Positions 2,684 to 40,039 of a DNA stretch of 64,000 nucleotides are shown here, piece after piece. This stretch comes from Escherichia coli. GTDB lineage: Bacteria > Pseudomonadota > Gammaproteobacteria > Enterobacterales > Enterobacteriaceae. The stretch is taken from the NCBI RefSeq assembly GCF_003790525.1, contig NZ_CP033635.1, one strand, 5' to 3'. The notes beneath the pieces were generated by a model. It was not told the origin of the DNA and did no database searches. It worked only from the letters and a program-made list of their open reading frames with translations. Position 1 is the first letter of the stretch, and each line of letters begins with the position of its first letter. A program made the position numbers and the translations under genes.

Positions 2684-5005
2684 TTAACGTTTTTTGCCCA
2701 TTGCCGCCGCCAGCGCATCCATCATCGCGCTATTACCGGCAGGCTGCGCTTCACGCCCACGCGGTTTGGCTGCCGGGCGGTTGTTCTGCGGACGTTCATT
2801 ACCGCCGCCGCGACGAGCGTTGGTTTCGCCAGGCTGCTCGTCCAGACGCATAGTCAGGGCGATACGTTTGCGCTGAAGATCCACTTCCAGCACTTTCACC
2901 TTCACAATATCGCCCGCTTTCACCACGGTATGCGGATCTTCCACAAACTTGTTCGACAATGAAGAGATGTGAACCAGGCCGTCCTGATGAACGCCAATAT
3001 CGACAAACGCGCCAAAGTTGGTGACGTTGGTCACCGCACCTTCGAGGATCATACCCGGTTGCAGGTCGTTCATCGTTTCGACGCCATCGGCAAACTGAGC
3101 GGTTTTAAATTCCGGACGCGGATCGCGACCCGGTTTTTCCAGCTCTTTGATGATGTCAGTTACCGTCGGTACACCGAATTTTTCATCAGTAAAGTCAGAC
3201 GCTTTCAGGTTACGCAACTCGCTGCTGTTACCCATCAGATCTTTCAGTGCCTGCTGTGTTGCTGCCAGAATGCGTTCCACCACCGGATAGGCTTCCGGGT
3301 GGACGGTAGACGCGTCCAGCGGGTTATCACCATGGTTAATGCGCAAGAAGCCCGCGCACTGCTCGAAGGCTTTCGGCCCCAGACGGCTCACTTTCAGCAG
3401 TTGCTGACGGTTCTGGAACTGACCGTTCTCATCGCGCCAGGCAACGATGTTTTGCGCCATCATGCGCGTCAGGCCCGCCACGCGAGTTAACAGCGGAACA
3501 GAAGCGGTGTTGAGATCGACGCCAACGGCGTTTACGCAGTCTTCTACTATTGCGTCCAGTTTGCGGGCCAGTTGCGTCTGGCTGACGTCATGCTGATACT
3601 GACCTACGCCGATAGATTTCGGATCGATTTTCACCAGCTCCGCCAGCGGATCCTGCAAACGGCGGGCTATAGACACCGCGCCACGCAGCGAAACGTCGAG
3701 ATCCGGGAACTCCTGTGCTGCCAGCTCGGAAGCCGAGTAAACCGACGCGCCAGCTTCGCTGACGATCACTTTCTGCGCGGTCACTTTCGGGAACTGCTTC
3801 TGCACGTCGAGATAGAAACGCTCGGTTTCGCGGGAAGCTGTACCGTTGCCGATCGCCACCAGTTCAACGTTATGCTTTTCACACAGGGCAGCAACGGTCA
3901 TCGCTGCTTTTGCGGCTTGTCCGGTATGTGGATAAATGGTATCGGTCGCCACCAGTTTGCCAGTTGCATCGACCACCGCTACTTTTACCCCGGTACGCAG
4001 ACCCGGATCGAGGCCCATCGTTGCACGCAGTCCGGCTGGGGCCGCCATCAGCAGATCGTGCAGGTTACGGGCAAAGACGTTGATTGCTTCATCTTCCGCG
4101 CGTTCGCGCACGGTGCCCATCAGTTCGGTTTCCAGATGCATCAGCACCTTGATGCGCCACGTCCAGCTCACCACGCCTTTGCGCCAGCTATCCGCCGGGG
4201 CATTGTTCAGGCGCAGGCCAAGGTGATCCATGATGATTTGCTCGCAATAGCTCTCTTTCGGCGGCTCTTCGAACTGCGGATCGGCATTCAGCGAAAGCTG
4301 AAGTATGCCTTCGTTACGCCCACGGAACATCGCCAGCGCGCGGTGAGAAGGCACCGTGGATAGCGGTTCGTGATGATCGAAATAGTCGCGGAATTTCGCC
4401 CCTTCCTCTTCTTTACCGCTCACCACCGTCGAAACCAAATGCGCGTTCTTCCACAGATAATCACGCACTTTTGCCAGCAGCGCGGCATCTTCGGCAAACC
4501 GTTCCATCAGGATATAGCGCGCGCCGTCCAGCGCGGCTTTGGTATCTGCCACGCCTTTATCTGCATCAACATATTGTGCAGCCGCGACTTCTGGCGTGTG
4601 TGACGGATCGCTCCACAGCAGGTCAGCCAACGGCTCAAGCCCTGCTTCAATGGCGATTTGCCCGCGGGTGCGGCGTTTAGGTTTGTAGGGTAGGTAGAGG
4701 TCTTCGAGTTCGGTTTTGCTTAAGGTGGCGTTGATGGCCTTCGCCAGATCATCGGTGAGTTTGCCTTGCTCGGAAATGGATTTGAGGATCGCCTGACGCC
4801 TCTCTTCCAGCTCGCGCAGATAGCTCAGACGCGTTTCCAGATTACGCAGCTGCGTGTCATCCAGACCGCCGGTGATTTCCTTACGATAACGTGCGATAAA
4901 CGGCACGGTATTCCCTTCGTCAAGCAGGCGAACGGCAGCGTCAACCTGTTCCGGGCGCGCCTGAATTTCACCCGCAATAATGCGGCAGAACGAATCATTC
5001 ATCAT
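2684..5005 (-). CDS. tex: Transcription accessory protein Tex (YhgF), S1 domain RNA-binding
   Basis: 773 aa ORF; translation recognised ([20 protein letters not shown]...). Confidence 0.95.
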
Positions 5006-5101
5006 GGTTTGAGTTCATCTTTTCGGATCAAAAATCAGGGGATAGTTATACGGACTGGCTGGCAAAAATGCCAGCCATCGGCAGGAGGTTAAGACTCTTC
5101 C

Positions 5102-5578
5102 TTACGGTTTCACGTACTCGATAGCATTAACATACCAGCTCGCTTCCCCGGCAGGGGTATTCACCACCGCCAGATCGCCGACTTCTTTTTTCAGCAATGC
5201 GCGGGCCATCGGGGAATCGATAGAGATGTAATCTTTACGGCCAAAAATTTCATCGTAGCCGACAATACGGAAACGGTGAGTCACGCCATCGTCGTTTTCA
5301 ATCTCCACCCACGCGCCAAAAAAGACTTTGCCTTCCTGCTGCGGGGAGTAATCGACGATTTTGAGATTTTCCATGCATTTAGTGAGATAGCGCACGCGAC
5401 GGTCGATTTCACGCAGGCGCTTTTTATTATACTGATAGTCAGCATTTTCGCTGCGGTCGCCCAAACTTGCGGCCCAGGTCACTTTCTTTGTGACCTCCGG
5501 GCGTTCTTCACGCCAGAGATAATTAAGCTCTTGTTTGAGTTTTTCATACCCTTCCCGGGTAACCAGGGGCGTTTTCAT
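5102..5578 (-). CDS. greB: Transcription elongation factor GreB
   Basis: ORF-track 170 aa trimmed to internal ATG (CAT at 5576..5578) giving 158 aa MKTPLVTREGYEKL...; matches GreB. Confidence 0.93.
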   Translation of the reverse strand: MKTPLVTREGYEKLKQELNYLWREERPEVTKKVTWAASLGDRSENADYQYNKKRLREIDRRVRYLTKCMENLKIVDYSPQQEGKVFFGAWVEIENDDGVTHRFRIVGYDEIFGRKDYISIDSPMARALLKKEVGDLAVVNTPAGEASWYVNAIEYVKP

Positions 5579-5805
5579 CTCGTTGATTCCCTTTGTCTGT
5601 TTGATAATGCGCACATTGGGTATAACGTGATCATATCAACAGAATCAATAATGTTTCGCCGAATAAATTGTATACTTAAGCTGCTGTTTAATATGCTTTG
5701 TAACAATTTAGGCTGAAATTCATACCAGATTTAGCTGGTGACGAACGTGAGCTTTTTTAAGAATACACGCTTACAAATTGTTGCGAACCTTTGGGAGTAC
5801 AAACA

Positions 5806-7874
<2,069 letters not shown>

Positions 7875-7876
7875 AT

Positions 7877-7907
7877 AAAACGGGAGGTGAAGGTGCCTCC
7901 CGTTTTT
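7877..7907. terminator. Bidirectional intrinsic terminator (AAAA-CGGGAGG-loop-CCTCCCG-TTTTT) shared by envZ and the minus-strand antitoxin gene
   Basis: 7 bp GC-rich stem 7881..7887 / 7896..7902 with A-run before and T-run after; antitoxin stop codon (7906..7908) lies in the T-run. Confidence 0.75.
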
Positions 7908-8202
7908 AGATTGTTTTCAATTGATTGATAATGAAAGGATTCGCTTGCAAAAGCAGGAGCAATTTTCGGGGTGCTCCGGTAGGCTGACGGCGTTTGGTTT
8001 CCCAGCTTTTGACCAGGTCATAACTTACCCCTACGGCGACAGCAAAATCTTGCTGACGTAAACCCGTTGCTTCACGGATCGCTTTTACATCGATTTCGCT
8101 AAAAGTATGGACGTGCTCTGGTTCTGGCGTTTCTTCACCCTTTTCGATGCGTACCATTTCTTCTGCGCTGGCAAGAAGATCAGCAAATAATTCATCTTTC
8201 AT
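7906..8202 (-). CDS. HigA-like antitoxin, XRE-family helix-turn-helix DNA-binding protein (98 aa)
   Basis: ATG at 8200..8202 with GGAGG Shine-Dalgarno about 10 nt upstream; C-terminal half has an HTH_XRE signature (LRQQDFAVAVGVSYDLVKSWETKRRQPTGAPRKLL); 58 bp downstream of a RelE/ParE-type toxin gene. Confidence 0.75.
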   Translation of the reverse strand: MKDELFADLLASAEEMVRIEKGEETPEPEHVHTFSEIDVKAIREATGLRQQDFAVAVGVSYDLVKSWETKRRQPTGAPRKLLLLLQANPFIINQLKTI

Positions 8203-8260
8203 CTGTTTTCAATGCCTCCGTTGACATTTCGGCCATGGTGGAATTTGTGGAGCTTCAACA

Positions 8261-8578
8261 TTAAAGCAGCTTCTCGGACAATAGTTTCAATGCCTTTCTT
8301 TGTTCTTCTGTTAAATCATCCTGTTCATTTTTAGGATAAATCAACGCCAGATAAATTCGGCCATTGCGTGTTACGTTGTAATAAATTATCCGAGTGCCAC
8401 CCCGTTTCCCCATTCCAGAACGGTTCCAGCGAATTTTTCTAAAACTGCCTGTGCCTGCGATAATGTCACCGGCAGTGGGATCTTGAATGAGTAGTTCCTG
8501 AAAAGCCCGGAACTCATCATCAGGTAGCAATAACTGGCGGCGTTTGCTAAATCCTTGTAGTTCAATAAAGGTGAACAT
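8261..8578 (-). CDS. HigB-like toxin, RelE/ParE superfamily (Gp49-like), probable ribosome-dependent mRNA endonuclease (105 aa)
   Basis: ATG at 8576..8578 with AGGA SD; motif GTGSFRKIRWNRSGMGKRGGTRIIYY resembles the conserved core of HigB-2/Gp49-like toxins (recalled Vibrio HigB: GTGGLRKIRVASKGKGKRGGSRIIYY); toxin-upstream, antitoxin-downstream order typical of hig loci. Confidence 0.72.
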   Translation of the reverse strand: MFTFIELQGFSKRRQLLLPDDEFRAFQELLIQDPTAGDIIAGTGSFRKIRWNRSGMGKRGGTRIIYYNVTRNGRIYLALIYPKNEQDDLTEEQRKALKLLSEKLL

Positions 8579-8602
8579 AATGCATCCTGCGGTCTATTGA
8601 TA

Positions 8603-8608
8603 ATTATA
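8603..8608 (-). promoter_or_regulatory. Candidate -10 hexamer TATAAT for toxin-antitoxin cassette promoter
   Basis: Perfect TATAAT on minus strand about 25 nt upstream of toxin ATG; -35 region weak; flanked by GTACAC direct repeat (possible operator). Confidence 0.35.
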
Positions 8609-8642
8609 AGTGTACCGTGTACATATTGGTAGCTAATTAGAT

Positions 8643-8673
8643 AAAAAAACCCCTTATCCGTTTGGATAAGGGG
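8643..8673 (-). terminator. Intrinsic terminator of pck (stem CCCCTTATCC / GGATAAGGGG followed by T7 on minus strand)
   Basis: 10 bp stem at 8650..8673 with A7 run at 8643..8649 (T-run on minus strand), 20 nt downstream of pck stop. Confidence 0.75.
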
Positions 8674-8692
8674 TCAATGAGATATCAGCTGA

Positions 8693-10315
8693 TTACAGCT
8701 TAGGACCTGCCGCTACCAGCGCGGCACCCGCAGGGGTGTCGGTGTATTTATCAAAGTTGTCGATAAACAGTTTCGCCAGGGTTTCGGCTTTTTCCTGCCA
8801 CTGTTCCGGGGAAGCGTAGGTGTTACGCGGATCGAGGATCTTCGTGTCTACGCCCGGCAGTTCGGTTGGGATCGCCAGGTTAAACATCGGCAGAGTGAAG
8901 GTTTCTGCGTTATCCAGCGAACCGTTGAGGATGGCGTCGATAATGGCGCGGGTATCTTTAATCGAGATACGTTTGCCAGTGCCGTTCCAGCCGGTGTTAA
9001 CCAGATACGCCTGCGCGCCTGCCGCCTGCATACGTTTCACCAGCACTTCTGCGTACTGAGTTGGGTGCAGCGACAGGAATGCCGCGCCGAAGCAGGCGGA
9101 GAAGGTTGGCGTCGGTTCGGTGATGCCGCGCTCTGTACCAGCCAGTTTGGCGGTGAAGCCAGAGAGGAAGTGGTACTGGGTTTGATCGGCAGTCAGACGA
9201 GAAACCGGCGGCAGCACGCCGAAAGCATCAGCAGTCAGGAAGATAACCTTAGTTGCGTGGCCCGCTTTGGACACCGGCTTAACGATGTTTTCAATGTGAT
9301 AGATAGGATAAGAAACGCGGGTGTTCTCGGTTTTTGAACCATCATCAAAGTCGATAGAACCATCTTCACGCACGGTGACGTTTTCCAGCAGCGCATCACG
9401 ACGGATAGCGTTGTAGATTTCAGGTTCCGCTTCTTTCGACAGCTTGATAGTTTTTGCGTAGCAGCCGCCTTCAAAGTTAAACACGCCGTCATCGTCCCAG
9501 CCGTGTTCGTCATCGCCAATCAGGCGACGTTTCGGGTCGGTGGAAAGGGTGGTTTTACCGGTGCCGGAAAGGCCGAAGAACACCGCAACATCGCCTTTCT
9601 CACCAACGTTGGCGGAGCAGTGCATAGAAGCGATACCTTTCAGCGGCAGCAGGTAGTTCATCATTGAGAACATCCCTTTCTTCATTTCGCCGCCGTACCA
9701 GGTGCCGCCAATCAGCTGCATGCGCTCGGTCAGGTTAAACGCCACGAAGTTTTCGGAGTTCAGACCCTGTTCTTTCCACTGCGGGTTAGTGCACTTCGCG
9801 CCGTTCATAACGATAAAGTCTGGTTTGAAACCTGCCAGCTCTTCATCGCTCGGGCGAATAAACATGTTTTTGACAAAATGCGCCTGCCAGGCCACTTCGG
9901 TGATGAAACGGACGGAAAGACGAGTATCCGGGTTCGCACCACAGAAAGCGTCGACAACGAACAGACGTTTGCCGGAAAGCTGTTTGGTCACCAGGCCTTT
10001 AAGATGCTGCCAGGTTTCCGGAGAGAGAGGTTTGTTGTCGTTCTTACCTTTGCCTTTGTCTGCCCACCAGAAAGTATCGCGAGTGGTATCGTCACGGACG
10101 ATATACTTATCTTTTGGTGAACGACCGGTGAAGATCCCGGTATCGACGGCAACGGCACCCAGATTAGTTAACACCCCGCGCTCATAACCTGTCAGGCTCG
10201 GATCGAGCTCTTCCTGATACAGCAGGTCGTAGCTTGGGTTGTAAACGATATCATGTACGTCACTGATACCATAAGCCTCGAGTTCTTGCGGGGTCAAACC
10301 ATTGTTAACGCGCAT
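8693..10315 (-). CDS. pck: Phosphoenolpyruvate carboxykinase (ATP)
   Basis: ORF-track 563 aa begins at a TTG; internal ATG (CAT 10313..10315) gives 540 aa [20 protein letters not shown]..., matching PckA. Confidence 0.95.
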
Positions 10316-32099: not shown

Positions 32100-33263
32100 A
32101 TGTTTGTAGAAGCATTGAAACGCCAGAACCCGGCGCTAATTTCCGCCGCACTAAGTTTGTGGCAAAAGGGCAAGATCGCCCCGGACAGCTGGGTGATCGA
32201 CGTGGATCAGATACTGGAAAACGGTAAGCGGCTGATTGAGACGGCGCGGCTTTACGGCATTGAACTGTATCTGATGACCAAGCAGTTTGGTCGTAATCCG
32301 TGGCTGGCGGAAAAATTGCTGGCATTAGGCTACAGCGGCATTGTGGCGGTGGATTACAAAGAGGCGCGAGTCATGCGCCGCGCTGGTTTGCCGGTGGCGC
32401 ATCAGGGGCATCTGGTACAAATCCCTTGTCATCTGGTTTCTGACGCCGTTGAACAGGGAACTGATGTCATCACCGTGTTTACTCTCGACAAAGCGCGGGA
32501 AGTTTCTGCGGCAGCGTTGAAGACCGGACGTGTGCAGTCTGTGCTACTCAAAGTTTATAGCGACGATGATTTTCTTTATCCGGGCCAGGAGAGCGGTTTT
32601 GCCCTCCAGGTGTTGCCGGAGATTGTCGCCGAAATCCAGAATCTGCCGGGGTTACATTTGGCGGGACTTACCCATTTCCCTTGCCTGCTTTGGGATGAAG
32701 CTGTCGGGAAAGTTTTGCCGACACCGAATCTTCACACGCTGGTACAAGCACGGGATCAACTGGCGAAATCTGGTATTGCGATTGAGCAACTGAACGCGCC
32801 TTCAGCGACCAGCTGCACTTCGCTGCCATTGCTGGCGGAATACGGTGTGACTCATGCCGAACCCGGTCATGCGCTGACGGGCACTATTCCGGCAAACCAG
32901 CAGGGCGATCAGCCTGAACGTATCGCGATGCTCTGGTTAAGTGAAATCTCCCATCATTTCCGTGGCGACAGCTACTGCTACGGCGGCGGTTACTACCGTC
33001 GTGGTCACGCGCAACATGCGCTGGTGTTTACGCCAGAAAATCAAAAGATTACTGAAACCAATCTCAAAACTGTGGATGACAGCAGTATCGACTACACCCT
33101 GCCGCTGGCAGGCGAGTTTCCGGTAAGCAGTGCAGTAGTGCTCTGTTTTCGCACGCAGATTTTTGTCACCCGTAGCGATGTGGTGTTGCTGTCCGGTATT
33201 CACCGTGGCGAACCGGAAATCGTCGGTCGTTATGACAGTCTTGGAAACTCTCTGGGGGCGTAA
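32100..33263 (+). CDS. yhfX: Putative PLP-dependent amino-acid racemase-like protein YhfX
   Basis: 387 aa; translation recognised as YhfX (alanine racemase fold by recall). Confidence 0.88.
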
Positions 33264-34489
33264 TGGCGCGATTTGTGGTGTTAGTGATTGATAGCTTTGG
33301 CGTAGGCGCAATGAAAGATGTCACGCTGGTGCGTCCACAGGATGCCGGGGCGAATACTTGTGGTCACATCCTGAGCCAGCTGCCGCATTTGCAGCTACCA
33401 ACGCTGGAGAAGTTGGGGCTAATCAACGCATTGGGTTATGCGCCAGGTGATATGCAGCCGTCAGACTCCGCAACCTGGGGTGTGGCAGAGCTGCAACATG
33501 AAGGTGGCGATACCTTTATGGGGCATCAGGAAATTTTAGGCACGCGCCCGTTACCACCGCTGCGGATGCCTTTTCGCGATGTGATTGACCGTGTTGAGCA
33601 GGCATTAGTTTCCGCCGCTTGGCAGGTGGAGCGCCGTGGCGAAGAGTTGCAATTTCTGTGGGTCAATCAGGCGGTTGCGATTGGCGATAATCTCGAGGCG
33701 GATTTAGGCCAGGTCTATAACATCACCGCCAATCTCTCTGTGGTCTCTTTTGACGACGCAATCAAAATTGGTCGTATCGTGCGTGAGCAGGTACCGGTCG
33801 GGCGGGTCATTACATTTGGCGGCCTGTTAACCGACAGTCAACGCATTCTCGATGCCGCAGAAAGCAAAGAAGGGCGCTTTATTGGCATCAACGCGCCGCG
33901 TTCTGGCGCTTATGACAACGGTTTCCAGGTCGTGCATATGGGCTATGGCGTCGATGAAAAAGTGCAGGTACCACAAAAACTGTATGAAGCAGGCGTGCCA
34001 ACCGTGCTGGTGGGTAAGGTGGCAGATATCGTCAACAATCCTTATGGCGTGAGCTGGCAAAACCTGGTGGATAGCCAGCGGATTATGGATATCACCCTCG
34101 ACGAATTTATCACCCATCAGACAGCGTTTATTTGCACCAACATTCAGGAAACCGACCTCGCTGGTCACGCAGAAGACGTCGCACGTTATGCTGAACGTTT
34201 GCAGGTCGTTGACCGTAATCTTGCTCTCCTGGTTGAGACGATGCAGCCAGATGATTGCCTGGTCGTGATGGCGGATCACGGTAACGATCCGACAATCGGT
34301 CACAGCCACCATACCCGCGAAGTCGTGCCGGTGCTGGTTTATCAGCAAGGCCTGGCTGCCACGCAGCTTGGTGTTCGCACCACGCTCTCCGATGTGGGCG
34401 CTACCGTGTGTGAATTCTTCCGTGCGCCACCGCCACAAAATGGTCGCTCTTTTCTTTCCTCCCTCCGGTTTGCAGGAGACACCCTATGA
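33263..34489 (+). CDS. yhfW: Phosphopentomutase-like metalloenzyme YhfW
   Basis: 408 aa; 1 nt overlap with yhfX stop. Confidence 0.88.
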
Positions 34490-35739: not shown

Positions 35740-37044
35740 ATGGATCTGTATATTCAGATTATCGTGGTGGCGTGCCTGACGGGTATGACATCGCTTCTGG
35801 CGCATCGCTCGGCAGCCGTTTTTCATGACGGTATCCGCCCGATCCTGCCGCAACTGATTGAAGGCTATATGAACCGTCGCGAGGCGGGGAGTATCGCTTT
35901 TGGTCTGAGCATTGGTTTTGTGGCCTCGGTGGGGATCTCTTTTACCCTGAAAACCGGGCTGCTCAACGCATGGTTACTCTTTCTTCCTACCGATATCCTC
36001 GGCGTACTGGCGATAAACAGCCTGATGGCGTTTGGTCTTGGCGCTATCTGGGGCGTGTTGATCCTTACTTGCCTGTTGCCGGTAAACCAGCTGCTGACCG
36101 CGCTACCGGTGGATGTATTAGGTAGCCTCGGGGAATTAAGCTCGCCGGTGGTTTCAGCTTTTGCACTCTTCCCGCTGGTGGCGATTTTCTACCAGTTTGG
36201 CTGGAAGCAAAGTCTGATCGCCGCCGTGGTGGTACTGATGACCCGCGTGGTCGTCGTGCGCTATTTCCCACATCTTAACCCTGAATCCATCGAAATCTTT
36301 ATTGGTATGGTGATGCTGCTGGGGATCGCGATAACTCACGACCTGCGTCATCGTGATGAAAATGACATTGATGCCAGCGGGCTTTCGGTGTTTGAAGAAC
36401 GCACGTCACGGATTATCAAAAACTTACCGTATATCGCCATCGTGGGAGCATTGATTGCCGCCGTTGCCAGCATGAAGATTTTCGCCGGTAGTGAAGTGTC
36501 GATCTTCACTCTGGAGAAAGCGTACTCCGCAGGCGTAACGCCGGAACAATCGCAAACACTAATCAACCAGGCAGCTCTGGCGGAATTTATGCGCGGGCTG
36601 GGTTTTGTGCCGATGATTGCCACCACCGCGCTAGCCACCGGCGTGTATGCAGTTGCGGGCTTTACCTTTGTTTATGCGGTGGGCTATCTCTCGCCGAATC
36701 CGATGGTTGCAGCGGTATTAGGCGCAGTGGTTATTTCGGCGGAAGTCCTGCTGCTTCGTTCGATCGGCAAATGGCTGGGGCGCTACCCGTCGGTGCGTAA
36801 TGCGTCGGATAACATCCGTAACGCCATGAATATGCTGATGGAAGTGGCGTTGCTGGTCGGTTCGATCTTTGCAGCAATCAAAATGGCGGGCTATACCGGA
36901 TTCTCTATCGCAGTTGCCATTTACTTCCTCAACGAATCCCTGGGCCGTCCGGTACAGAAAATGGCGGCACCGGTCGTGGCAGTAATGATCACCGGTATTC
37001 TGCTGAATGTTCTTTACTGGCTTGGCCTGTTCGTTCCGGCTTAA
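35740..37044 (+). CDS. yhfT: Inner membrane protein YhfT (putative transporter)
   Basis: 434 aa, multi-pass hydrophobic; translation recognised. Confidence 0.88.
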   Translation: MDLYIQIIVVACLTGMTSLLAHRSAAVFHDGIRPILPQLIEGYMNRREAGSIAFGLSIGFVASVGISFTLKTGLLNAWLLFLPTDILGVLAINSLMAFGLGAIWGVLILTCLLPVNQLLTALPVDVLGSLGELSSPVVSAFALFPLVAIFYQFGWKQSLIAAVVVLMTRVVVVRYFPHLNPESIEIFIGMVMLLGIAITHDLRHRDENDIDASGLSVFEERTSRIIKNLPYIAIVGALIAAVASMKIFAGSEVSIFTLEKAYSAGVTPEQSQTLINQAALAEFMRGLGFVPMIATTALATGVYAVAGFTFVYAVGYLSPNPMVAAVLGAVVISAEVLLLRSIGKWLGRYPSVRNASDNIRNAMNMLMEVALLVGSIFAAIKMAGYTGFSIAVAIYFLNESLGRPVQKMAAPVVAVMITGILLNVLYWLGLFVPA

Positions 37045-37055
37045 GGAAGGCACCT

Positions 37056-38141
37056 ATGAAGACGTTTCCTCTGCAAAGCCTGACGCTTATTGAGGCGCAG
37101 CAAAAGCAGTTTGCGCTGGTGGATAGCATTTGTCGCCATTTTCCCGGCAGCGAGTTTCTTGCTGGCGGTGATTTAGGCTTAACGCCGGGGCTGAATCAAC
37201 CGCGCATTACCCAGCGAGTGGAACAGGTGCTGGCTGATGCATTTCACGCACAGGCTGCAGCGCTGGTACAGGGCGCGGGTACTGGCGCGATCCGTGCGGC
37301 GTTGGCGGCTTTGCTCAAACCGGGGCAGCGTCTTCTGGTGCATGACGCGCCTGTTTACCCGACGACTCAGGTCATTATTGAGCAGATGGGGCTGACGCTT
37401 ATTACTGCTAATTTCAATGACCTGTCGGCACTTAAGCAGGTCGTCGACGAGCAACAACCGGATGCGGCGCTGGTGCAGCATACGCGCCAGCAGCCGCAGG
37501 ACGGCTACATTCTGGCAGATGTGCTGGCAACGTTGCGCTCGGCAGGTGTTCCAGCCTTAACCGATGATAACTATGCGGTGATGAAGGTGGCGCGCATTGG
37601 CTGTGAATGCGGGGCGAATGTCTCGACATTTTCCTGCTTCAAGCTATTTGGGCCAGAGGGTGTTGGCGCGGTGGTAGGCGATGCCGATGTTATTAGCCGG
37701 ATTCGCGCCACGCTCTATTCCGGCGGCAGCCAGGTTCAGGGCGCGCAGGCGCTGGAAGTCTTGCGTGGTCTGGTGCTCGCGCCAGTGATGCACGCGGTGC
37801 AGGCGGGGGTATCTGAACGGTTGCTGGCTTTGCTTAACGGCGGCGCGGTGGCGGAAGTGAAAAGCGCCGTCATTGCCAATGCACAGTCGAAGGTATTGAT
37901 TGTGGAGTTTCATCAGCCGATTGCCGCCAGAGTGCTGGAAGAGGCGCAGAAACTCGGTGCCTTGCCTTACCCGGTTGGTGCAGAGTCGAAATATGAAATC
38001 CCGCCGCTCTTTTATCGACTTTCCGGAACGTTTCGCCAGGCGAATCCGCAGTTAGAACATTGCGCGATTCGCATTAACCCAAATCGCAGCGGTGAAGAGA
38101 CGGTATTGCGGATTTTGCGCGAGAGTATTGCCGACGTTTAA
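37056..38141 (+). CDS. yhfS: Putative PLP-dependent enzyme YhfS
   Basis: 361 aa; translation recognised. Confidence 0.88.
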   Translation: MKTFPLQSLTLIEAQQKQFALVDSICRHFPGSEFLAGGDLGLTPGLNQPRITQRVEQVLADAFHAQAAALVQGAGTGAIRAALAALLKPGQRLLVHDAPVYPTTQVIIEQMGLTLITANFNDLSALKQVVDEQQPDAALVQHTRQQPQDGYILADVLATLRSAGVPALTDDNYAVMKVARIGCECGANVSTFSCFKLFGPEGVGAVVGDADVISRIRATLYSGGSQVQGAQALEVLRGLVLAPVMHAVQAGVSERLLALLNGGAVAEVKSAVIANAQSKVLIVEFHQPIAARVLEEAQKLGALPYPVGAESKYEIPPLFYRLSGTFRQANPQLEHCAIRINPNRSGEETVLRILRESIADV

Positions 38142-38171
38142 TTCTGGGAACGATGTTTTTCGAAGAGTATG

Positions 38172-38207
38172 GAGAAAAAATACGCCCTCGGAAAATCTCG
38201 AGGGCGT
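38172..38207 (-). terminator. Intrinsic terminator downstream of yhfL (stem CGCCCTCG / CGAGGGCG, T-run on minus strand)
   Basis: 8 bp GC stem 38183..38206 with A-run 38172..38181 on plus strand (T-run on minus). Confidence 0.55.
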
Positions 38208-38247
38208 CAGGCAATTAAATCAGCATCTGCCAATTTCTGTCAGAGAC

Positions 38248-38415
38248 TTACTGTGCAGTAGGACCGCAACCGCCAATGATTTTAGAAATAGAAATAGCTG
38301 GGTGCAGCAGGTAGTCGTAAGAGCAGTTCTTATCACGGTTTTCAATATGACCAGTACATGCAGTTAACGTAGCCAGTACCGCACCTACCAGTGCAACTTT
38401 AATAAATTTGTTCAT
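38248..38415 (-). CDS. yhfL: Small lipoprotein YhfL (55 aa)
   Basis: Hand-translated minus-strand ORF: MNKFIKVALVGAVLATLTACTGHIENRDKNCSYDYLLHPAISISKIIGGCGPTAQ (lipobox LTAC). Below ORF-track size cutoff. Confidence 0.88.
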   Translation of the reverse strand: MNKFIKVALVGAVLATLTACTGHIENRDKNCSYDYLLHPAISISKIIGGCGPTAQ

Positions 38416-38629
38416 TTACATTCCCTATGTATTATATATTGATTAATATTCATTGATTATATGAATATAAGCAGACTGCTCATTAAGAATGATACAGGAA
38501 TATTTAATTGGCGTCAGTGAACGAATGACTTAATTTTGTAAGTCGCTGTAACGGTGAATATAACCCATTAGCAGATAATATTTATTAAGGGGGGTATTTT
38601 TATCTGCTGAATATATAAAGAGAGTTGTA

Positions 38630-38656
38630 AACGAAAAAGGCCAGAATTCTCTGGCC
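38630..38656 (-). terminator. Intrinsic terminator of nirBDC-cysG operon (stem GGCCAGA / TCTGGCC, T-run on minus strand)
   Basis: 7 bp stem 38639..38656, AAAAA on plus strand at 38634..38638, 10 nt downstream of cysG stop. Confidence 0.6.
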
Positions 38657-38665
38657 CTGGTTAAA

Positions 38666-40039
38666 TTAATGGTTAGAGAACCAGTTCAATTTATCGCGCA
38701 GGCCAACAACCCGACCAATAATAATTAGCGATGGACTGTTCATTTGCTGCGCCAGTTCGCCCAGCTGCGTGAGCGTACCGTCAATCACGCGCTGCGTGAC
38801 TGCCGTTCCGTTTTCGACAATTGCCACCGGCATTTCGCCAGGCATACCGTGTTCAATCAGCTTTTGCTGAATAGTCGCGGCCTGATTCAACCCCATATAG
38901 AACACCAGCGTCTGTTTTTCTGCCGCCAGGTTTTCCCAGTCCAGTTCGCCACCGGTTTTTAAGTGTCCGGTAATTAAGCGTACGCTCTGGGCATAATCGC
39001 GATGCGTGAGCGGAATACCCGAATAGGCAGAGCAACCAGAAGCTGCGGTAATACCCGGAACCACCGAGAACGGAATGCCTGCATTGCACAGTGTTTCCAG
39101 CTCTTCGCCACCACGGCCAAAAATAAACGGATCGCCGCCTTTCAGTCGCACCACGCGTTTGCCTTTTTGCGCTTCCCGCAGCAGGATCTGGTTAATCTCT
39201 TCCTGCGGTACGCAGTGGTATCCCGCGCGTTTGCCGACGAAAACGCGATCAGCATCGCGGCGTACCAGATTCATAATATCGTCAGAAACCAGACGGTCGT
39301 AGACCACCACATCTGCCTGCTGAATTTGTTGCAGTCCTTTCAGTGTCAGCAGCCCGGCATCGCCCGGACCTGCGCCAACCAGCACCACTTCACCGCGATG
39401 GTCGAGCGGTTCGTTGATTAATTGTTCGGTCGTTTCAGTAATGGCTTTCTGATCGTTGTTTGCCAGCGACTGCGCCAGACGGTCATTAACGAACAGTTTT
39501 TCCCAGAAACGGCGACGTTCACCCATTGTGGCGAACTGTTGTTTCACTCGACCGCGTAATTGCCCGGCGTATTTCGCTACCTGGCCCAGATGCAACGGCA
39601 GCAGTGATTCAAGTTTTTCACGCAACAGGCGTGCCAGAACCGGAGAGGTGCCGCCAGAGGAGACCGCGACCATGAGCGGTGAGCGGTCAATAATTGACGG
39701 CATAATAAAGCTGGCGGCTTTCGGCGCATCGACCACGTTACAGAAGATGCGACGAGCTTCAGCGGCTTCACTGACGCGCTGGTTAAGCGCGTCATCATCT
39801 GTCGCTGCAATCGCCAGCCAGCAGGTGTCGAGAAGGCTTTCATCAAATGGCCCTTCGACGAGGGTTAACATGCCTGCATCTGCCCATGCGGTGAACTGTG
39901 GAATAAACGCTAATGCATTCACCGTTAAGCGAGCGCCTGCGTCTAACAGCAACCTTGCTTTGCGTTCCGCGACATCACCACCGCCGACAATCAGACAGTC
40001 GCGATCGCGTAATTGGCAAAATATAGGCAAATGATCCAC
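38666..40039 (-). CDS. cysG: Siroheme synthase (uroporphyrinogen-III methyltransferase / precorrin-2 dehydrogenase / ferrochelatase)
   Basis: 457 aa; translation recognised. Confidence 0.96.

Follow-up and report, generated by a model that had tools for sequence, protein, structure and literature searches.

The yhfS–yhfL junction of Escherichia coli SMS-3-5 is probably an unoccupied, ancestral-type allele of the frlABCDR site

Results

Genes and hairpins of the yhfS–yhfL junction

The window analysed here is a stretch of 64,000 nucleotides, in which the 1.7 kb around the yhfS–yhfL junction match the chromosome of E. coli SMS-3-5 (NC_010498.1) at 100%. SMS-3-5 is an environmental O19:H34 isolate of ST354 and phylogroup F (PMC11537424). 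In the annotation of NC_010498.1 the genes run in the order yhfZ-Y-X-W-php-U-T-S, followed on the opposite strand by yhfL-cysG-nirC-nirD-nirB. From the list of open reading frames and the RefSeq annotation of this identical record, it is clear that yhfS (37056..38141, + strand, 361 amino acids) is intact. Its product is an enzyme of the PLP-dependent aminotransferase fold with 95% amino acid identity to the YhfS protein of K-12; the gene ends with a TAA stop codon at 38139-38141 and closes the yhfZYXW-php-yhfUTS cluster as its last member. On the other side lies yhfL (38248..38415, − strand, 55 amino acids), which was identified from the open reading frame list, the annotation and tblastn, and which codes for a small DUF4223 lipoprotein that is 100% identical to its K-12 counterpart as checked by tblastn. 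Both flanking genes are thus full length, and neither is truncated.

The two convergent genes are separated by an intergenic spacer of 106 bp (38142..38247), which we regard as an unoccupied, ancestral-type frl site. A preliminary description of this DNA had set the yhfS stop at 38141 and the yhfL stop at 38248 with a gap of 106 bp, and these coordinates hold. The same description had called the junction clean, and indeed the spacer contains no IS element, frl fragment or Rfam match. An Rfam scan of 37900-38750 gave no match at E ≤ 1, a search of the same interval for repeats and IS ends returned only short matches at chance level, and tblastn of the frl proteins against the whole 64-kb window gave zero matches. 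Pieces of frl genes within 38142..38247, named beforehand as grounds for giving up the claim that the operon is absent, were looked for by BLAST against K-12 and by tblastn, and none was found. Since the absence of frl is a fact of gene order and not a statistical pattern, chance is not at issue here.

The terminator hairpin mentioned in the preliminary description is real, as confirmed by a terminator scan and by RNA folding. The scan found a sole site, an intrinsic (Rho-independent) terminator of yhfL at 38172..38207 on the − strand, with the stem-loop at 38207..38182 and the T-run at 38181..38172. Its 9-bp stem has seven G-C pairs and encloses an 8-nt loop; the tail reads ATTTTTTCTC, with ATTTTTT following the stem-loop directly on the minus strand. 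Folding of the yhfL 3′ UTR recovered the same hairpin, and eight of the nine stem pairs never vary in nine Escherichia sequences. Because the T-run lies on the minus strand only, and none follows the hairpin on the yhfS (+) strand, the hairpin is assigned to yhfL. A G+C-rich stem-loop followed by a U-run is what defines an intrinsic terminator, and termination of yhfL at this site is predicted from it. The minimum-free-energy fold contains in addition a second, AU-rich hairpin of 8 bp (38217..38236, − strand), which follows closely on the yhfL stop codon and precedes the terminator in the 3′ UTR. In the alignment of nine Escherichia sequences 94% of its cells are paired and two pairs change on both sides, which gives weak statistical support.

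Comparison with K-12 MG1655

Heated food is rich in the Amadori products fructoselysine and psicoselysine, on which the frl operon allows E. coli to grow; frlABCDR of K-12 is reportedly the operon through which both compounds are utilised (Wiame et al. 2002, 2004; Graf von Armansperg et al. 2021). In K-12 the order of genes is cysG, yhfL, frlA, frlB, frlC, frlD, frlR and then yhfS on the other strand. The gene order given in the preliminary description is therefore right, and yhfS is not adjacent to yhfL in the MG1655 annotation. When the window was aligned with K-12 by BLAST, the check that had been proposed for this claim, two collinear blocks were obtained, one ending at 38147 and the other resuming at 38173, with the frl block skipped between them. 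The stretch of K-12 left out (3499692-3504928) measures 5,237 bp, in agreement with the roughly 5 kb of frl genes said to be absent.

The two loci are alike in their neighbourhood, nirBDC-cysG-yhfL lying to one side and yhfS-yhfZ-trpS to the other; the flanks of K-12 and SMS-3-5 are 93–98% identical, and both have the same yhfL terminator. What SMS-3-5 lacks is the set of five frl genes, together with the promoter region of these genes and the REP/GC-rich repeats found in K-12 between frlR and yhfS; it has 25 bp of ancestral-type spacer where K-12 has the 5,237 bp left out by the BLAST blocks. At the junction the genome is thus not K-12-like, as had been proposed: a 106-bp spacer stands in place of the frlABCDR operon of K-12.

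The divergence of the flanking genes from K-12 is uneven. The DNA of yhfS is only 93.5% identical to that of K-12, going down to 91% toward its 3′ end and the junction, compared with 97.6–98.1% for cysG and nirB. Both the yhfT and yhfS stretch (35740-38141) and yhfW (33263-34489) are unusually diverged for E. coli.

Frequency of the empty and occupied alleles

The distribution of the two states was determined in 5,426 complete RefSeq E. coli genomes. A contiguous frl-less yhfS–yhfL junction is present in 2,107 of them (39%), and in 3,297 (61%) the K-12 frl block is found to an extent of 80% or more; the remaining 22 genomes belong to neither class. With 2,107 empty and 3,297 occupied alleles in this collection, the locus is indeed a variable one, as had been suggested from a single sequence. 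The particular allele of SMS-3-5 is rare, since its junction region is matched at 99% identity or more in only 32 of the 5,426 genomes, and most other E. coli stand at 93–94%. In two frl-less genomes (NZ_CP029747.1 and NZ_CP041996.1) an ISApl1 element of the IS30 family lies inside the 1.7-kb junction region and splits the match in two.

The operon is carried by IAI1, the O111 strain 11128 and O157:H7 EDL933, among others, and is missing from O145:H28 RM12581, O104:H21 and several H21 swine strains. We take these strains to belong to phylogroups B1 and E, among which both states would then occur.

Arrangement in other species

The arrangement outside typical E. coli was examined with a YhfL query against one genome per GTDB species, which yielded at least 39 loci; their genes were assigned by tblastn, using the proteins of K-12, and the 39 loci listed include neither E. 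fergusonii nor the named cryptic clades. At the loci listed, yhfL directly adjoins yhfS, with no frl gene within 10 kb, in E. albertii, in a divergent Escherichia labelled E. coli (locus L022, 4–8% from K-12 in nirD, nirC, cysG and yhfL) and in five species of other genera, namely Citrobacter werkmanii, Citrobacter sp. FP75, Enterobacter sp. ENT03, Superficieibacter electus and Buttiauxella agrestis. In at least about 20 other species trpS comes straight after yhfL. The only one of the GTDB representatives listed with frl at this site is E69, labelled E. coli, which has the K-12-like arrangement.

All of these empty junctions, from E. albertii to Citrobacter, Enterobacter, Superficieibacter and Buttiauxella, resemble that of SMS-3-5 in having convergent genes with a terminator hairpin between them and no frl. 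In the other genera the spacer measures only about 60–90 bp and the terminator hairpin has another sequence, whereas the Escherichia spacers, that of E. albertii included, can be aligned over their full length. The SMS-3-5 spacer can be aligned from one end to the other with the spacers of L022, of E. albertii and of the four further frl-less E. coli inspected, and every one of these four has a spacer of 106 bp as well. This adjacency of yhfL and yhfS in the outgroups, together with the collinearity of the spacer, argues that the empty site is of the ancestral type and that frl is an insertion in K-12-like lineages. Judged by its sequence, the SMS-3-5 junction is one of the ancestral, unoccupied type, since its spacer is collinear and contains neither the GC tract of frl-positive alleles (see below) nor frlA promoter DNA nor the REP/GC-rich repeat. 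The frl genes had been described as missing, which is true relative to K-12, but the word should not be taken to imply a deletion: the spacer runs collinear with its E. albertii counterpart, and K-12 probably has the derived state.

Several other features of this region vary as well. The yhfS-yhfZ cluster of about 9 kb is itself variable: in E. coli strain 137 (locus L007, NZ_CP028626.1, 1772-8244) trpS adjoins frlR, the frl genes being kept and the yhf cluster being wholly gone, and yhfL lies next to trpS in the enterobacterial species mentioned above (loci L011, L012, L015 and others). In E69 yhfW is only 85% identical. YhfL homologues were also found away from nir-cysG in Serratia, Mixta, Pluralibacter, Mangrovibacter and Rahnella (loci L017, L024, L026, L036-L038, L041 and L044), and Citrobacter youngae ATCC 29220 has two YhfL copies (L015 and L031). 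Matches to YhfL in 'Bacillota' and 'Rickettsiales' metagenome-assembled genomes (L040 and L046) are on short contigs and are probably due to contamination.

Content, age and mobility of the frl block

The block present in K-12 consists of the frlA promoter region, frlABCDR, a REP element and a GC-rich dispersed repeat. Its annotation shows no integrase, transposase or tRNA, and no convincing target-site duplication was found. The G+C content of the block (53.8%) is the same as that of its flanks (53.6–54.0%), and its GC3 is only slightly higher, at about 65% compared with 57–60% for cysG, nirB and yhfS; base composition was therefore rejected as a signal of foreign origin, being uninformative. 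With a G+C content like that of the flanks and without an integrase, transposase, tRNA or duplication, nothing marks the block as foreign. A 6-bp direct repeat, TTAAAT, that flanks the K-12 block was considered as a target-site duplication and discarded, since alignment with two empty alleles, those of strains HH97 and HH45, moved the insertion point away from the stop codon.

The K-12 spacer between frlR and yhfS (locus L001, 10785-10935) is made up of the REP element and the GC-rich dispersed repeat CCCCTCACCCTAACCCTCTCCCCAAAGGGGCGAGGGG, which we presume to be boxC-like. Because the repeat is dispersed, a query with the frl block gives many short extra matches, with a median of eight places per genome. 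The deletion of the yhf cluster in strain 137 ends right at this GC-rich repeat.

The block appears to have been at this site for a long time. E69 differs from K-12 by 3–6% in nirD, nirC, cysG and yhfL, and its frl genes are 91–96% identical to those of K-12; in complete RefSeq E. coli genomes frl is always at least 95% identical to K-12, none being as divergent as E69. The presence of frl at the same site in a genome that has diverged by 3–6% indicates that the insertion is old.

Close homologues of the operon occur on Pantoea plasmids, where the genes frlA-frlB-frlD-frlR encode FrlA, FrlB and FrlR proteins with 84–89% amino acid identity to those of K-12, and an FrlD with 65%. One such cluster, without frlC, is at 4642-8772 of the P. 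eucrina plasmid NZ_CP083449.1 (L049), and FrlB homologues were found on thirteen Pantoea plasmids, including P. agglomerans megaplasmids. These clusters share with K-12 the order of the genes and a conserved stretch upstream of frlA; they differ in being plasmid-borne, in having no frlC and in an FrlD that is only 65% identical. Homologues on plasmids of another genus indicate that the operon travels among the Enterobacterales. The Pantoea plasmids were also considered as the donor and not retained as such: the homologues are close, yet give no evidence of direction.

Insertion point and the question of secondary loss

Hand alignment of both edges of the K-12 island with SMS-3-5 and with HH97 and HH45 places the equivalent of the frl insertion point at 38149..38152 of the window, an approximate position to be read as give or take a few bp, which is 8–11 bp past the end of yhfS. 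In K-12 the sequence homologous to 38142-38148 is retained next to yhfS and that homologous to 38153-38247 next to yhfL, and the K-12 insertion, as aligned against HH97 and HH45, measures about 5.2 kb (3499723-3504925). In the three frl-positive alleles examined (K-12, E69 and strain 137) a GC-rich tract of 11–13 bp is situated just beyond the terminator, and no such tract is present in seven aligned empty spacers.

The sequence expected after a clean excision of frl from K-12 was constructed and used as a query among E. coli genomes. This mimic was matched at 96–98% only in HH97 (locus L047, 3061-3178) and HH45 (L048, 3061-3179), two of the 2,107 empty junctions, and every other full-length match among those listed, best first, stood at 91.3%. 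HH97 and HH45 are also the only empty junctions with the GC tract, which is otherwise seen only in frl-positive alleles. Since the tract is absent in SMS-3-5 and in 2,105 of the 2,107 empty alleles, these are not excision scars of the frl-positive allele. HH45 retains beside the insertion point an ancestral CGTT that K-12 lacks, and an excision scar therefore fits it less well than an allele that was never occupied and stands near the progenitor of the occupied one. The HH97 allele can be read both ways, as one of the progenitor type or as a product of excision.

These data bear on secondary loss, in which an ancestor of SMS-3-5 would have had frl at this site and would have lost it by illegitimate or microhomology deletion, or by allelic replacement through homologous recombination in yhfS and yhfL/cysG with DNA of a frl-less strain. 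Such a history is conceivable in that frl is old at the site, being present with matching divergence in E69, which is 3–6% from K-12, and in that the divergence of yhfS climbs toward the junction, as is expected near recombination breakpoints or from an old polymorphism. Both states are moreover found among the strains that we take to be of phylogroups B1 and E. A frl-less B1 gut strain is also on record (PMC12021133), and together these occurrences suggest that recombination shuffles the alleles. A simple deletion, however, should leave an island edge or the GC tract behind, and neither is present in SMS-3-5: its spacer was searched for frl-edge sequence (GC tract, REP/boxC and frlA promoter fragments) and none was found, no K-12 island sequence remains in it, and neither flanking gene is truncated. 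Base for base, the spacer is instead collinear with the E. albertii one. The neighbouring phylogroup B2 is reported to be almost uniformly frl-less (PMC5996543). Allelic replacement would still have left an ancestral-type allele here, altering the history of the locus and not the identity of the sequence. We therefore consider secondary loss unlikely, although it survives better than the other alternatives.

Search for frl elsewhere in the genome

Another location of the operon in SMS-3-5, at a different chromosomal site or on a plasmid, is very improbable. A composite query made of the SMS-3-5 junction region and 1,400 bp of K-12 frlB and 5′ frlC was run by blastn with a word size of 11; SMS-3-5 ranked first, and the single place matched by the query within NC_010498.1 was the junction. 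This single place means that the operon is not elsewhere on the chromosome at a similarity detectable at the DNA level, frlB and 5′ frlC not being found down to roughly 65–70% identity. Across the E. coli collection, frlBCD was matched in 3,300 genomes, in a single place in all but one, always on the chromosome and on no plasmid, and yhfL adjoins the operon in every frl-positive locus examined. The check that had been proposed for frl elsewhere, run here with the frlB/frlC part of the operon, thus came out negative for frlB and 5′ frlC on the SMS-3-5 chromosome and for frlBCD on E. coli plasmids. Least probable of all, to the point of being negligible, is an assembly artefact in which a 5-kb block was collapsed or dropped, since the junction region recurs with 100% identity over 1,701 bp in at least 20 complete genomes that were sequenced independently, the architecture is common to 2,107 genomes, and the junction has no repeats able to cause a collapse.

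Discussion

Taken together, the above comparisons make it most probable that the sequence at 38142-38247 represents, within the presence/absence polymorphism of frlABCDR, the allele of the ancestral, unoccupied type, frl having been inserted in K-12-like lineages. In the empty allele, the convergent yhfS and yhfL are parted only by the yhfL 3′ UTR with its two hairpins, the second of them along the transcript being the predicted terminator. In K-12-like E. coli the frl block of about 5.2 kb would have been inserted some 8–11 bp past the yhfS stop, and the island would probably have been gained by horizontal transfer. With no frl genes found on its chromosome, SMS-3-5 would be without the route for these Amadori compounds that is formed by the FrlA transporter, the FrlD kinase, the FrlB deglycase and the FrlC epimerase.

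A wider reading can be put forward tentatively, and we hold it as possible though not as the likelier case: the frl polymorphism would predate the diversification of E. coli and cross Escherichia species clusters, with the empty state as the original one, and would have been long kept by selection and reshuffled by recombination. This suggestion comes from the occupied alleles in K-12-like E. coli and E69, the empty alleles in E. albertii, L022, the strain types that we take to be B1 and E, and phylogroup F, the greater divergence of the adjoining yhfS, and the rare progenitor-like empty alleles of HH45 and HH97. Selection of this kind may, for example, act through a diet- or niche-dependent use of Amadori compounds.

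The lack of frl in E. coli strains has been described before. Absence of the frl transporter or operon marks B2, AIEC and ExPEC strains, for which growth on fructoselysine was predicted in 0–3% of cases compared with 69–91% in other groups (PMC5996543, Fang et al. 2018), and it has been called a hallmark of B2 (bioRxiv 10.1101/2025.09.14.675865). A B1 strain of the mouse gut has also been reported to be without the operon, with mutations in frlR and frlA being selected in an frl-positive strain (PMC12021133), and frl mutations have repeatedly been selected in mouse-gut evolution experiments (PMC12021133; bioRxiv 10.64898/2026.05.27.728231). According to section 11 of PMC11774025, genes for fructoselysine/psicoselysine degradation are exclusive to 'lower phylons' (the B2/D side). 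This statement is opposite to PMC5996543 and to the present genome counts; perhaps another set of genes is meant, or the statement is an error.

SMS-3-5 shares this difference in gene content with the documented frl-negative B2, ExPEC and AIEC strains and with the B1 strain of the mouse gut; it differs from them in belonging to phylogroup F and in being environmental. Since absence in B2/ExPEC and in some B1 strains has been published, the finding in SMS-3-5 is an instance of a known strain difference, and the absence of frl here is common, ordinary and already known as a difference from strain to strain.

Among the metabolic traits by which B2/ExPEC strains stand apart from most E. coli is the absence of frl (PMC5996543). 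For the present genome, the junction sets the strain background as non-K-12, and from the gene content a fructoselysine-negative phenotype is predicted. What the comparison adds is a probable direction, from an ancestral empty site to the insertion in K-12; this leaves knowledge of the pathway itself unchanged and would be a modest clarification for the annotation of this locus and for the polarity of gene gain and loss in the E. coli pangenome.
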